DNA of 64,000 bases from an uncultured Opitutales bacterium (GTDB lineage: Bacteria; Verrucomicrobiota; Verrucomicrobiia; Opitutales; CAYWEO01). Below, one piece after another: positions 5,684 to 61,536 of this stretch. The translations under genes and the position numbers were made by a program. The stretch lies in contig CAYWEO010000001.1 in the NCBI GenBank assembly GCA_964457855.1, positions 81,747 to 145,746 of the forward strand. The letters run 5' to 3'. Each line of letters opens with the position of its first letter. The stretch's first letter is position 1. Under the pieces are notes generated by a model that was not told the origin of the DNA, did no database searches, and worked only from the letters and a program-made list of their open reading frames with translations.

Positions 5684-5822
5684 GGGACTTCCGAACCTTT
5701 CAAAGAAAAGTCATATCGGAAGGCATTTTTGTGGCACAGAGTGCCAAAAAATGCCTTTCGAATTAAGAGTTTTTTTGGAAAGGGTACGGGAAAACCTATT
5801 TTTGCAAAAAATGGTTTTCCCG
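5684..5822 (+). repeat. F1 triple-hairpin mosaic repeat (A truncated; B, C intact)
   Basis: Right half of A only (about 5684-5710). B 5717-5760 (apical stem GTGGCAC/GTGCCAA). C 5787-5822. Confidence 0.85.
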
Positions 5823-5871
5823 TATAAAAATAGTTGATTCTCGTGAAAAAATATCTACTTTAGTCAGGATC

Positions 5872-6549
5872 ATGGGGAAGCATTTTTGGAATTTGTTGAT
5901 GGGGTGCGTGTTGGCGGTGTTGATTTCTGGGTGTGGGAGCACGACGGGGTTGAGTCCGAAAGATACGATTACGAAGGATGGGTATCAAGAGGGGCCCGAT
6001 TTTGTGGCGCCTGGGACTGCAGGAGGGGCTGGAGGAGCTCAGGGCGTGAATGGGGATTCCGCGACAATGCAGACGACAGGAGGTATGCCGGCGGAGCGTG
6101 ATGAGGCGTTTTTGAAGGGTTTGCAGGGGGATGTTTACGATTTAGTGAAGGGGAAAGAGGCGCAAGTAACGGTTTATTTTGAGTTTGACCAATCGGCGAT
6201 TCGGCCGAGCGATCGCGAGAAATTGCGCCAGTTTGCGGAGAGTTCCCATGGGGATGGGCGGTTTATTATCGTGGGTTGTTGCGACTGGTTTGGGCCGCGC
6301 GAGTACAATTTGGGTTTGGGCGAGAGACGGGCGAACGCTGTTATGAATTACTTAAAAATGATTGGCTTCATAAGTCCAATTGAAGTGTTGTCACGCAGCA
6401 ATTTAGATGCCGTTCAGGGATTATCCCGCGAGGATGCTTGGCGGGATCGCAATGGGGGCGTTTATAAGCTTCCTGGAAGTTCATCATCGAATGCGGGTGC
6501 TTCGACGAGTGCCACGGCGCCAGAAAATACTACAGATGTTGCTCAATAA
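5872..6549 (+). CDS. pal: peptidoglycan-associated lipoprotein (OmpA-C domain)
   Basis: Lipobox LISGC near the N-terminus. OmpA-like C-terminal domain (YFEFDQSAIRP, NLGLGERRANAV). Confidence 0.8.
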   Translation: MGKHFWNLLMGCVLAVLISGCGSTTGLSPKDTITKDGYQEGPDFVAPGTAGGAGGAQGVNGDSATMQTTGGMPAERDEAFLKGLQGDVYDLVKGKEAQVTVYFEFDQSAIRPSDREKLRQFAESSHGDGRFIIVGCCDWFGPREYNLGLGERRANAVMNYLKMIGFISPIEVLSRSNLDAVQGLSREDAWRDRNGGVYKLPGSSSSNAGASTSATAPENTTDVAQ

Positions 6550-6560
6550 GAACCGTTTGA

Positions 6561-7751
6561 ATGGGATTTTGTCGAGAGTTTTTCAAGAAAACTTCCGAAT
6601 CCTTCGAGCGGTTGATTGTGGATGTCATTTATGATCGAAAGACGGAGGGGTTGGGCGTTTGTTTATTGAGGTTGTTGCTGAGAGGCCTATCGTTGATTTT
6701 TACGCTCATTGTTCAAATTCGGTTGTTACTGTACAAAAACGGTCTTTTTAAGGCGCAACCCCTTGGGTGCCTAGTGATTGTTGTGGGGAATTTGACCGTT
6801 GGTGGGACTGGGAAGACGCCCGTTGTGGAGCAATTGGCGAAGGCTTTAACGCGGAAGGGGCGAAAGGTGGCGATTTTGAGCCGTGGCTACAAAAGCAAAG
6901 GAATTTCTCTTGGACGGCGGGCGCTTAATTGGCTGATTCACGCACCTGCATCGCCTCCGAAGGTGGTTAGCGACGGGAAAACGATCTTTTTGAACTCGGA
7001 ATATGCGGGTGATGAGCCCTACATGTTGGCGAAAAATCTGCAGGATGTTGTTGTCATTGTAGACAAGGATCGCGTGAAGGCAGGAAGGTACGCGATTCGG
7101 CATTTTGGTGCGGATACGTTGATTTTGGATGATGGTTTTCAGTATTTATCGCTCAAAGGGGTGCTCAATCTCGTTTTGGTCGACAAGACAAACCCTTTTG
7201 GGAACGGCAAGTTGTTGCCTTGCGGAATTTTACGTGAGCCCTTGAGCCGATTGAAGGACGCTTCGTATGTGTTGCTGACGAAATCCGATGGCGTCCGCGA
7301 TCTTCCCTTGGAAGCGATCATTCGCAAACACAATCAGGATGCGCAGCTCATCGAATGTCGTTATAAGCCAAAGTGTTTGAATGAAATTGGCGGCGAAATG
7401 ATTTTGACGTTATCGGAATTGGCTGGCCTAAAAGTCGCAAGTTTGGTGGGCATTGCGGTTCCGGAAAGTTTTGAGCAGTTTTTAGTGGAAAAAGGCGCTA
7501 AAATTGTTTACAGTAAGTGGTTTATGGACCATCATCGTTTTGACAAAGCGGATTTAAGGGAGTTTTTTCAGGCTGCCGTGGATGCGGGGGCTGAGCTCGT
7601 GCTGACGACGGAGAAGGATGCTGTCAGAATCGAGGAAAATTTTCAAAGCCAGCTGCCGTTTTACTATTTGAAGCTCGAAGTGGAGATTTTGTTGGGGAAA
7701 AATCTCGAGGATACCGTGTCGCGGATCTGCTTCCCCAAAAGCGTTCTTTAA
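6561..7751 (+). CDS. lpxK: tetraacyldisaccharide 4'-kinase
   Basis: Walker A context [13 protein letters not shown]. Length and architecture are typical of LpxK. Confidence 0.85.
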
Positions 7752-59863: not shown

Positions 59864-59946
59864 ACGACTTTGACTTTTCTTGAAAGACGGGAGATAAGTG
59901 AGGTTACACACAAATTCCCTATCATCCATCAAGGTAATCAAGGTCA

Positions 59947-61359
59947 ATGGTTCACGAACACGGACAACGATTAGAGCACGCACACAGGCAGGTCCATGTC
60001 CTCGCGCCGCAGCTGATGCTGTCCCTGAAGATTCTGCAAGCCCCAGCGGCAGAGCTGCAAGAGATTGTATTGCAAGAACTTCAGGTCAATCCCGTACTCG
60101 AGGAAGTTGCGCAAGAGGAAACAAATCTCACGTCACCAGAGGATTCAGACGTTGGTAACGAAGAGCTTACGGATCCGGATAGGGATCTTTTAGAGTATTT
60201 GGAGGGCGGCACTTTCGCAAACGCACAGAGGGAACACCGCAATCGAGAGGCGGACGAGCGCAGGCAGCATTTTTGGGACTCAATCCCCAGTGAAGTCACT
60301 CTAACGGAACATCTCATGCGTCAGGCGCGGACCGGCGAATTGACTCCCGAGGAGCTGGAAATTTTTGAGTACGTTGTGGGGAATTTGGACGATAACGGCT
60401 TCCTGTCGATGCTTTTAGAGGACATCGCTTCGGCAAAAAACGCGTCGGTAGCGGCCGTCGAAAAGGTTGTCCGTGCGCTGCAAAACATGGATCCGCCGGG
60501 CCTTGGCTGCAAGGACGTTCGCGAAAGCCTCCTCTGCCAGCTCGAAGTTTTGGGCAAAGAAGATTCCTTAGAGGCACAAATGCTTCGCGAACACTACGAC
60601 CTCCTTCTAAAGCGAAAAATTCCCGTTCTAGCAAAGATTTACGGCGTGACAACCGACGCTATTCAGGCCGCCATCAACGCCATCGGGACATTGTATTTTG
60701 CCCCGGGAAGGCGGTTCGTCCATCAACATGAGCAGTCAATCATCCCCGACGTCACTGTCGTAAAGGAAGCCGGCGTTTGGAGCATCATTTTAAACAAGGA
60801 ATCCCTCCCGCGCCTCGGCATCAGTTCCCTCTACAAACGCTTGTTAGGCAACGCTCAACTTGCCACAACCGAGCGCGCCTACATCAAGGGGAAAATCCAC
60901 TCTGGCCGCCTCTTCATTCACGCCATCGATCAAAGGCAACACCTCCTCCAACGCATGACCGAGAAACTCCTCGAATTCCAACGAGATTTTTTCGAGTCCG
61001 GAATCTCCCACCTAAAACCCCTCAAAATGCAAGAAATGGCCCACGCCCTCAACGTTCATGAGACCACCATCAGCCGCGCCGTTTCCAACAAGTACCTCGC
61101 GACCCCCCACGGAATCCTTCCGTTCCGCTCCCTCTTCACCAGCGGCATTCCCAACAACGACGGCGATGTCATCTCCAGCACCACCATCAAGGAATCCCTA
61201 CGCAAACTCATTGCCTCCGAACCCCCCTCCTCCCCCCTCTCAGATCAACAACTCTCCCGCCTCCTCACCAAAAACAACACCCCCATCGCCCGCCGTACCG
61301 TCTCCAAATACCGCGAAGAGTTGGGCATCGCGTCGGCAACGCTGAGACGTGAATATTGA
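59947..61359 (+). CDS. rpoN: RNA polymerase sigma-54 factor
   Basis: N-terminal Gln/Leu-rich region I (LAPQLMLSLKILQAPAAELQ). C-terminal HTH and RpoN box (ARRTVSKYRE). Confidence 0.9.
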   Translation: MVHEHGQRLEHAHRQVHVLAPQLMLSLKILQAPAAELQEIVLQELQVNPVLEEVAQEETNLTSPEDSDVGNEELTDPDRDLLEYLEGGTFANAQREHRNREADERRQHFWDSIPSEVTLTEHLMRQARTGELTPEELEIFEYVVGNLDDNGFLSMLLEDIASAKNASVAAVEKVVRALQNMDPPGLGCKDVRESLLCQLEVLGKEDSLEAQMLREHYDLLLKRKIPVLAKIYGVTTDAIQAAINAIGTLYFAPGRRFVHQHEQSIIPDVTVVKEAGVWSIILNKESLPRLGISSLYKRLLGNAQLATTERAYIKGKIHSGRLFIHAIDQRQHLLQRMTEKLLEFQRDFFESGISHLKPLKMQEMAHALNVHETTISRAVSNKYLATPHGILPFRSLFTSGIPNNDGDVISSTTIKESLRKLIASEPPSSPLSDQQLSRLLTKNNTPIARRTVSKYREELGIASATLRREY

Positions 61360-61363
61360 TTTT

Positions 61364-61536
61364 CCGGAGGGGGTGTTTTTTGCAAAAAGCACCCCCTCCG
61401 GGCCTCCCCCTTAAAAACTCTTAATTCGAAAGGCATTTTCATTTGGCCTTACAGGCCAAATGAAAGTGCCTTTCGATATGCTTTTCTTTTGAAGGTTCGG
61501 AAACTTCTTCTTTTCTCTGGAAAAGAAAAGTTTCCG
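61364..61536 (-). repeat. F1 triple-hairpin mosaic repeat, full copy (C-B-A)
   Basis: C 61364-61401. B 61427-61475 (apical stem CATTTGGCC/GGCCAAATG). A 61498-61536. C starts 4 nt after the rpoN stop. Confidence 0.9.

Follow-up and report, generated by a model that had tools for sequence, protein, structure and literature searches.

F1, a modular and apparently undescribed family of palindromic repeats between the genes of a 64-kb stretch of bacterial DNA

Here we show that a 64-kb stretch of contig CAYWEO010000001.1 (referred to below as the window, meaning the whole stretch of DNA that was analysed) carries a family of repeats of about 170 nt, named F1, which are built of three hairpins in the order A-B-C. 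The sites listed in an initial annotation of this DNA are found again by a covariance model, their hairpins show compensatory pairing and they are all intergenic, and hence the family is real: F1 is confirmed as a modular, fixed-order, orientation-free and strictly intergenic repeat family. It is a new and apparently undescribed family, whose logic is that of known bacterial mosaic repeats. We favour the view, and hold it to be reasonably probable, that F1 is a composite palindromic interspersed repeat family of the kind that includes bacterial interspersed mosaic elements (BIMEs), BOX elements and MITEs (miniature inverted-repeat transposable elements), which is or formerly was mobile and is probably co-transcribed as stable RNA.

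As the initial annotation had suggested, a covariance model (R1; 168 positions, 63 pairs) was built on an alignment of the 10 full copies. R1 was run over the window without filters, and sites were counted at E<0.01. Exactly 13 sites, and no others, were obtained at this threshold, with scores of 51-180 bits for all sites and 157-180 bits for the 10 full copies. R1 also gives one weak match at 43408-43489 (E=0.02), which is a solitary hairpin C with spacer 2. Direct reading and R1 agree that all 13 listed sites carry the sequence described for them. The B-arm motif CGGAAGGCATTTT, with at most 2 mismatches allowed, has 31 matches against 3.95 expected, a number that none of 100 shuffles attains, and the pattern of spacer 1 plus B has 12 matches in the window against 0 expected. 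Copy lengths range from 164 to 174 nt, and the pairwise identity among copies is 67-87%, with a mean of 76%. The G+C content of the full copies is 34-49%, compared with roughly 47% for the window, and F1 is thus slightly AT-richer. The density of about one copy per 5 kb of window, the module order, which is invariant in every copy, and the occurrence of both orientations (5 copies on the + strand and 8 on the - strand) are all as initially described.

The F1 unit starts with hairpin A, followed by spacer 1, hairpin B, spacer 2 and hairpin C. In all copies, hairpins A and C begin with (C/T)CGG at their base and hairpin B with TCGGAAGG. Complementarity between parts of the two spacers allows a fourth helix to form around B. 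The predicted RNA fold of a single copy (24012) has an energy of -105 kcal/mol (z=-12.6) for the sense and -104 kcal/mol (z=-14.6) for the antisense strand, with the three hairpins and the spacer helix, and DNA folding parameters give the same shape. Pairing was tested on a model-guided alignment of 11 copies with 500 shuffles. Standard pairs are present in 97.2% of the cells, and both-sided changes occur at 23 of the 63 pairs, which was equalled in 0 of the 500 shuffles; when partner columns are made to slide by 1-3, pairing falls to 40-67%. RNAalifold on a MAFFT alignment, which is not fitted to the structure, finds 22 compensatory pairs out of 63. We therefore consider the three predicted hairpins to be strongly supported. 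The statement that hairpin C is a perfect palindrome does not apply to every copy. The apex of B and the loops vary freely across copies and the stems stay paired, and the complementarity of the arms may be kept either by selection on folding or by correction within the palindrome. Strand-specific RNA selection in the hairpins was considered and discarded, as their wobble counts (12 G:U vs 6 A:C) show no clear strand preference and are uninformative. The helix between spacers 1 and 2 has 19 G:U vs 1 A:C, which may be a weak hint of sense-strand RNA.

The hairpins exist as discrete variants, A1-A3, B1-B4 and C1-C4, and nearly all combinations occur. Thus, A1 is seen with B2-C1, B1-C2 and B1-C4, and A2 with B4-C1, B1-C3, B3-C2 and B2-C2. 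The four-gamete test fails for both A-B and B-C, all four "gametes" being present for each, which implies that the F1 copies recombined or were assembled from modules. The truncated copies 5660 and 53818 share one break point inside A, and among the copies with the B2 apex the loop is inverted in 61364 (TGTAA) with respect to 10139 and 18603 (TTACA). Most copies have a purine-rich stretch of about 20 nt 5' of A (positions -22 to -3 are 80-90% purine), and positions +5 to +17 beyond C are pyrimidine-rich. The flanks are predicted to close together in 8 of 10 copies, a count taken from minimum-free-energy folds without a shuffled control. The idea of a larger "X-B-X" layout, where spacer 2 plus C would be repeated by the 5' flank plus A, was rejected because the flank alignments are no better than those of shuffles (z~0).

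The position of F1 relative to genes was determined on a map of 50 curated genes, drawn up with Pfam and NCBIfam scans, two overlapping open reading frames (ORFs) having been rejected. In agreement with the initial annotation, 13 of 13 copies lie outside supported coding sequences, in spacers between genes that have Pfam or NCBIfam support. Intergenic DNA makes up 12.4% of the window and F1 takes 26% of the intergenic bases; treating the 13 midpoints as independent, the chance of a fully intergenic placement is about 1.6e-12. The notion that almost every long spacer contains a copy was too strong, the true number being 13 of the 20 spacers of at least 150 nt. Of the spacers, 4 of the 5 convergent ones, 2 of the 4 divergent ones and 7 of the 40 tandem ones hold a copy, and at least one gene 3' end adjoins 11 of the 13 copies. 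Six copies (10139, 24012, 31939, 48246, 55080 and 61364) have their C end at a distance of 4-7 nt from the stop codon of the inward-reading gene. Pfam domains reach the C-terminus of proS, rpoN and lpd, showing that these genes are not extended by F1. A coding function of F1 itself was rejected, since no frame is consistently open across the copies; moreover, their lengths are mostly not multiples of three.

Promoter and terminator consensus sequences were scanned between 10 and 29 kb, a region with six F1 elements. No promoter-like site is present within any of these elements. Canonical sigma-54 promoters have a GG-to-GC spacing of 10 nt; a candidate of this type in the B apex (TGGCAC-N4-TGCC) was rejected because its spacing is 8 nt. 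Terminator-like sites are not enriched in the scanned region (28 vs 28.0 in shuffles), and two clear ones are located within F1, in B of copy 15766 and in A of copy 12617. The T-tracts start 5-8 nt from the base of B and not directly after it, unlike those of an intrinsic terminator. In two tandem cases, the next gene begins only 21 nt (a major facilitator superfamily (MFS) transporter gene) or 30 nt (sua5) past the A end and, in view of this proximity and the lack of a promoter consensus inside the scanned elements, these genes must be read through F1.

With respect to the individual copies, the genes among which they are found are only housekeeping genes, such as cmk, rnpA, yidC, yebC, lpxK, an SNF2 helicase gene, rpmE, eno and an NTP/ADP transporter gene, together with clpP, sufBCD, proS, leuS, lpxI, pnp, rpsO, efp, rnhB/C, rpsT, recA, sua5, lpd and rpoN. 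The convergent spacer between eno and a gene for a 217-aa hypothetical protein contains a full copy of the A2-B4-C1 type (15766..15936, - strand, R1 158.7 bits), which adjoins copies of a second repeat family, F2, described below. Another full copy, A3'-B2-C2 (18603..18775, - strand, 157 bits), lies between the NTP/ADP transporter gene and a kpsF-like gene, also convergent, with F2 directly to its left. The convergent spacer of recA and sua5 has a truncated copy consisting of the end of A, spacer 1 and B (53818..53884, - strand, 51.1 bits, model positions 52-117), as initially noted, beside F2-like sequence. The convergent spacer between rpoN and a tetratricopeptide repeat (TPR) gene is filled by a full copy, A2-B2-C2 (61364..61537, - strand, 165.3 bits), the C end of which is 4 nt past the rpoN stop.

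Two copies are located in divergent spacers. The first, full and of the A3-B1-C1 type (12617..12782, + strand, 166.7 bits), lies between a Trp/Tyr permease gene and usp. The same spacer has a canonical two-way intrinsic terminator at 12412-12444 (AAAAAAACGGCGGAG TCT TTCCGCCGTTTTTTT), upstream of where the permease gene begins; its presence hints at an unannotated short transcript there. The second (45627..45762, - strand, 73.8 bits), between a leucine-rich repeat (LRR) protein gene and efp, has decayed: it retains an intact A and spacer 1, but B has degenerated and there is no C, the last as initially described.

Among the remaining copies, the one at 5660..5823 (+ strand, 125.6 bits, E=4.5e-31) has a degenerate A with spacer 1, B, spacer 2 and C intact, and is situated between the 3' end of yebC and the 5' end of an ompA-like gene, directly after the F2 copy at 5558-5662. 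The others are full. Copy 10139..10310 (A3-B2-C1, - strand, 176.3 bits) has its C end 6 nt past the stop of the SNF2-helicase gene and an additional half A arm abutting its A end, the rpmE start being 195 nt beyond the latter. Copy 24012..24185 (A1-B2-C1, + strand, 170 bits), whose fold is given above, has the proS stop 4 nt away from its C end and the start of sufC on its other side. Copy 25762..25930 (A2-B1-C3, - strand, 177.5 bits) separates the stop of a gene for an 833-aa hypothetical protein from the proS start. About 27 nt from this copy, starting 7 nt inside the 3' end of the hypothetical gene, there is a 47-nt palindrome with perfect 21-bp arms (25957-26003; CATCGACAATGACGAATGATC GCAGA GATCATTCGTCATTGTCGATG), which is weakly detected by both models and by the promoter scan. 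Copy 31939..32112 (A2-B3-C2, + strand, 168.6 bits) is flanked by a TPR gene, whose stop is 5 nt away from the C end, and by the start of leuS. Copy 48246..48412 (A1-B1-C2, - strand, 179.9 bits) has its C end 7 nt past the rnhB stop and its A end 21 nt before the MFS transporter gene, and copy 55080..55249 (A1-B1-C4, + strand, 163.9 bits) has its C end 4 nt from the lpd stop and its A end 30 nt before sua5. The solitary fragment of C and spacer 2 mentioned above (43408..43489, - strand, 15.4 bits), which was missing from the earlier list, aligns by eye with the corresponding part of copy 10139.

F1 reaches well beyond this genome, with a patchy distribution and its own subfamily in each of three genomes. 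According to the initial annotation, confinement to the window, without a conserved module order, would undercut the family definition; F1 is not so confined, as is evident from a copy on contig L003 and from elements in the lineages L011 and L018. The copy on L003 (a 1.36-kb contig) is the one true relative obtained in a single metagenome scan. It is located at the contig end, next to an FBXL-type LRR gene (799-1320) that is absent from the window. The part present comprises A and spacer 1 together with the left arm of B, and shares 96% identity with copies 15766 and 61364. A scan of genome contigs with the F1 pattern gave a chance match only, in an Acetobacteraceae metagenome-assembled genome (MAG). 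Logan contig L022 (SRR12261224) is 100% identical to window positions 16833-18490 (1,658 nt) and ends 29 nt into the neighbouring F2. Since this contig is an independent assembly of the same organism, the window sequence is not an artefact of one assembly, and repeats of the F1/F2 type appear to fragment short-read assemblies.

Loci of relatives, from nine lineages in all, were taken where homologues of the transporter (68-70% identity) or LeuRS (63% identity) lie. Two of these, L011 and L018, whose transporters are only 68-69% identical to that of the window, carry shorter (about 115-145 nt), diverged A-spacer-B-spacer-C elements, with 3 F1-like copies in 21.5 kb of L011 (35% G+C) and 4 in 21.5 kb of L018 (42% G+C). 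The consensus of the relatives' elements is TAAGGGAAC-TTTTT..AAAAA-GTTCCCTTA for A, AACCnTCAAAA for spacer 1, CATTTTGCAAC..GTTGCAAAATG for B, AAGAGTTTTGAGAGGGGT for spacer 2 and TGGGAGATYTTTTACAAAARATCTCCCA for C. A model built from the relatives only (R2) matches the F1 copies of the window at 24-27 bits and nothing else in the window. F1 was not found in the sampled DNA, about 9-22 kb each, of L014, L015, L017, L021, L036, L037 and L038. Near two of the A-B-C-like elements of L011, at 11630-11680 and 4420-4470, a pyrimidine-rich motif is present (CACCTCTCTT..CAATCTTTTACTTC..GTT.CA.TTCA) that could represent either a further repeat family or a continuation of the F1-like element.

The best named matches are to Opitutales/Puniceicoccales MAGs, the nearest protein relatives being 63-70% identical. 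The window encodes an NTP/ADP exchange transporter (16922-18454) and a eukaryote-like FBXL-type LRR protein (43493-45571), L003 encodes a second FBXL-type LRR protein, and in several of the relatives' loci the transporter has genes of type III secretion (CesT, secretin, SseC) at its side. Together, the transporter, the LRR proteins and the secretion genes of the relatives suggest an intracellular or host-associated lifestyle. From these sequences, we take the bacterium to be a host-associated member of the Planctomycetes-Verrucomicrobia-Chlamydiae (PVC) superphylum.

The initial annotation did not recognise F1 as a named element, and this is borne out by our searches. At gathering thresholds, no Rfam family is found anywhere in the window; blastn gave no match to F1 in plasmid and phage collections; and viral contigs gave none for the F1 pattern of the window and only chance matches for that of the relatives. 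A plasmid, phage or viral origin of F1 was rejected on the basis of these collections. Literature searches, with sequence strings and by topic, found no description of F1.

The view that F1 is an interspersed repeat family is based on its presence at many non-homologous intergenic sites, in both orientations, together with decay products, reassorted modules, genome-specific subfamilies and a patchy distribution. Such a family could have arisen in three steps. A trans-acting agent would have seeded F1 into non-homologous intergenic sites; the copies, whose reassortment is observed, would then have swapped modules by recombination or gene conversion; and copies would persist only where no gene is broken, selection being the presumed cause of the intergenic placement that we observe. 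Because promoter consensus sequences are lacking and the elements abut stop codons, F1 is most likely transcribed within neighbouring messages. Its very stable stem-loops might impede 3' exonucleases and attenuate transcription in part, without terminating it fully; a role of F1 as a full terminator is unlikely. BIMEs and BOX elements have been reported to be 3' exonuclease barriers or attenuators (PMC3049150).

It should be noted that several observations weigh against this view. No transposase, Y1 transposase of the REP-associated type (RAYT) or insertion sequence (IS) is encoded among the 50 curated genes, and a cognate IS or transposase is likewise absent from the loci of the relatives. 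No consistent target-site duplication is seen when the flanks of 11 copies are aligned at both ends, the true ends being uncertain, and no convincing terminal inverted repeat is evident beyond CCGG and a loose resemblance of A and C. Both ends of F1 carry CCGG, and in some copies the outer stem of A is similar to that of C (z up to 4.9), with z~0 for the flanks beyond; because each terminal module is itself palindromic, a terminal inverted repeat would look the same. The F1 copies are just 67-87% identical, and recent movement is not proven. The six C ends at 4-7 nt from stop codons are not predicted by random insertion and have a p of roughly 1e-5 under uniform placement per spacer, a hand calculation for a test chosen after the data had been seen. 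Finally, the architecture and pairing are kept in genomes of 35-47% G+C, which could equally reflect a selected cellular function.

The last two observations are least explained by a purely selfish model, and they keep alive the possibility that function came first, i.e., that F1 is a selected cis signal for transcript ends (a two-way terminator, an insulator or an mRNA stabiliser) that is placed at gene ends where the cell requires it and has spread because it is useful. Consistent with this possibility are the frequent adjacency to gene 3' ends and the occupation of convergent spacers. In addition, the A-rich spacer 1, hairpin B and the T-rich spacer 2 together resemble a two-way intrinsic terminator, and two terminator-like sites were flagged within F1. 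However, the U-tracts are displaced from the base of B and terminator-like sites are as frequent as expected by chance, ordinary intrinsic terminators such as that at 12412-12444 exist in this genome, and full termination would silence the genes that start 21-30 nt downstream without an intervening promoter. Two copies are located in divergent promoter regions, and both orientations occur. Tandem copies of the window and the relatives have the C side toward the upstream gene in 8 of 11 cases, but this bias is not significant (8:3, two-sided binomial p~0.23). The conservation of pairing and architecture across genomes must also be set against the seven of nine related lineages without F1 in the sampled DNA. 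We consider a primary function of this kind unlikely.

Somewhat more doubtful is the view that A-spacer-B-spacer-C is an old, structure-selected module of a host-associated PVC lineage, the fold of which would be kept across genomes of 35-47% G+C for a lineage-specific reader factor, with the spread as a repeat being secondary. Lying a few bases past stop codons, such a module could, for example, serve as a signal for the processing or insulation of transcripts.

F1 might instead act at the DNA level, its palindromes binding a nucleoid, topoisomerase or recombination protein, or forming cruciforms, and thereby contributing to chromosome organisation. BIMEs bind integration host factor and gyrase. 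The symmetry of F1 is strand-independent (antisense R1 matches still reach 70-97 bits), its hairpins lack a bias between G:U and A:C, its placement is orientation-free, and C is palindromic through its centre in most copies. In two copies this centre changes symmetrically from TGCA to TATA, which RNA folding would not select. On the other hand, the freely varying loop and apex of B leave no room there for a fixed recognition sequence, the relatives' copies lack a palindromic centre of C, and the G:U excess in the spacer helix favours sense-strand RNA. By analogy with BIMEs, such a role is conceivable, and we regard it as very doubtful.

The idea that F1 copies are genes for multicopy trans-acting small RNAs, e.g., relatives of the chlamydial IhtA, is close to refuted and we give it hardly any weight: sub-threshold Rfam matches (IhtA, RF02569, 38.7 vs 76 bits; FuFi-1, RF02986, 32.2 vs 59.6 bits) were obtained with copy 24012 alone, IhtA matches neither copy 48246 nor the whole window and FuFi-1 matches the window only at copy 24012, the match of copy 24012 leans on a copy-specific GGAAGCC...GGCUUC extension, and F1 has no promoter consensus in or beside it, with start and stop codons abutting both sides. 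Membership of these known RNA families was rejected, matches of one copy at about half the threshold being hairpin-driven chance matches.

Several other repeats are present in the window. F2 is an imperfect palindrome of about 105 nt (GATTTTGAGCGGCGAG...ATCACGTAC..GTACGCTCA...CTCGTCATCTCAAAATC), with a variant form (TTTCAACCCC..GGGGTTGAAA), and has no Rfam match. Roughly 10 copies or fragments occur in the window, at 5558-5662, 15607-15711, 18462-18566, 10747-10855, 15060-15168, 10873-10909, 11017-11053, 15243-15366 and 53944-54044. F2 is directly beside F1 copies 5660 and 18603, is no farther than about 55-60 nt from 15766 and 53818, and takes up the convergent spacer between rpmE and the permease gene. 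The region 32863-38771 contains six tandem genes on the - strand (283-350 aa) without a Pfam match, and looks like a lineage-specific paralogous gene array. Coding stretches are repeated within it (34529-34603 with 35357-35431, and 34731-34938 with 35640-35847), and repeats of 37-81 nt (among them ...CGCC(C/G)AT(G/A)GCAAGC(C/T)TGAAG) are found at or near the 5' ends of the genes at 35882, 37004, 37749 and 38770. Two tandem repeats of about 111 nt (73% identical) at 52071-52291 are an internal coding duplication in a DUF4097 gene.

Were the rest of a genome of a few Mb like the window, it would contain several hundred F1 copies, an extrapolation from one window, and F1 would account for a sizeable share of the non-coding DNA of an otherwise compact, host-associated PVC bacterium. 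Families such as F1 break assemblies, create spurious ORFs, shape operon expression and serve strain typing. Although F1 reveals no new kind of biology, it provides a tidy case for how composite palindromic repeats persist and reshuffle without an evident transposase, and the related forms in two other lineages permit comparison.

It remains to compare F1 with the known families. Rickettsia palindromic elements are in-frame insertions within protein-coding genes; F1 differs from them in having no copy within a supported coding sequence and no consistently open frame. The pneumococcal SPRITE element has a core that resembles an intrinsic terminator (PMC3049150), and the centre of F1 similarly consists of an A-tract, a hairpin and a T-tract; however, F1 has two additional hairpins, and a distance of 5-8 nt separates its T-tracts from the stem. 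Like MITEs (Correia/NEMIS, RUP, Nezha), F1 is short, non-coding and highly paired, occupies many intergenic sites, and forms lineage subfamilies with a patchy distribution, but the terminal inverted repeats and target-site duplication that define MITEs were not found for it, nor, in the window and the relatives' loci, was a cognate IS transposase. The BOX element of Streptococcus pneumoniae is composed of boxA and boxC around a variable number of tandem boxB units. Its modules keep a fixed order and may stand alone, extensive folding is predicted for it, it clusters with other repeat families and it is likely to be co-transcribed (PMC3049150). F1 resembles it in its lone or truncated modules and in adjoining a second family, F2. 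By contrast, each F1 copy has exactly one B and tandem B arrays are absent, no target-site duplication was found, whereas terminal inverted repeats and target-site duplications are reported for BOX, and the hosts belong to unrelated phyla; the two are set apart by description and not by sequence comparison.

The initial annotation had likened F1 to BIME or repetitive extragenic palindromic (REP) mosaics or to MITEs. This is the right kind of comparison, and yet F1 is filed neither as a REP nor as a MITE, because the window encodes no transposase, neither a target-site duplication nor a clear terminal inverted repeat was found, and GTAG or CGTC tags are absent from every hairpin base in every copy. 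Genomes with REPs have a RAYT gene, usually flanked by REPs, and none was seen in the window. A REP is a short stem-loop that bears GTAG or CGTC as a tag at one end, and the tag defines two superfamilies (PMC3733652); BIMEs and REPs have also been associated with mRNA 3'-end protection and attenuation (PMC3049150, PMC3733652). The hairpins of F1 are longer (38-52 nt vs 20-40 nt), and its modules are three distinct ones and not tandem arrays of one unit. What F1 and the BIME/REP mosaics have in common is a dense extragenic distribution, within operons or between convergent genes and in either orientation, and a high-copy design of palindromic units joined by fixed linkers, the variants of which reassort.

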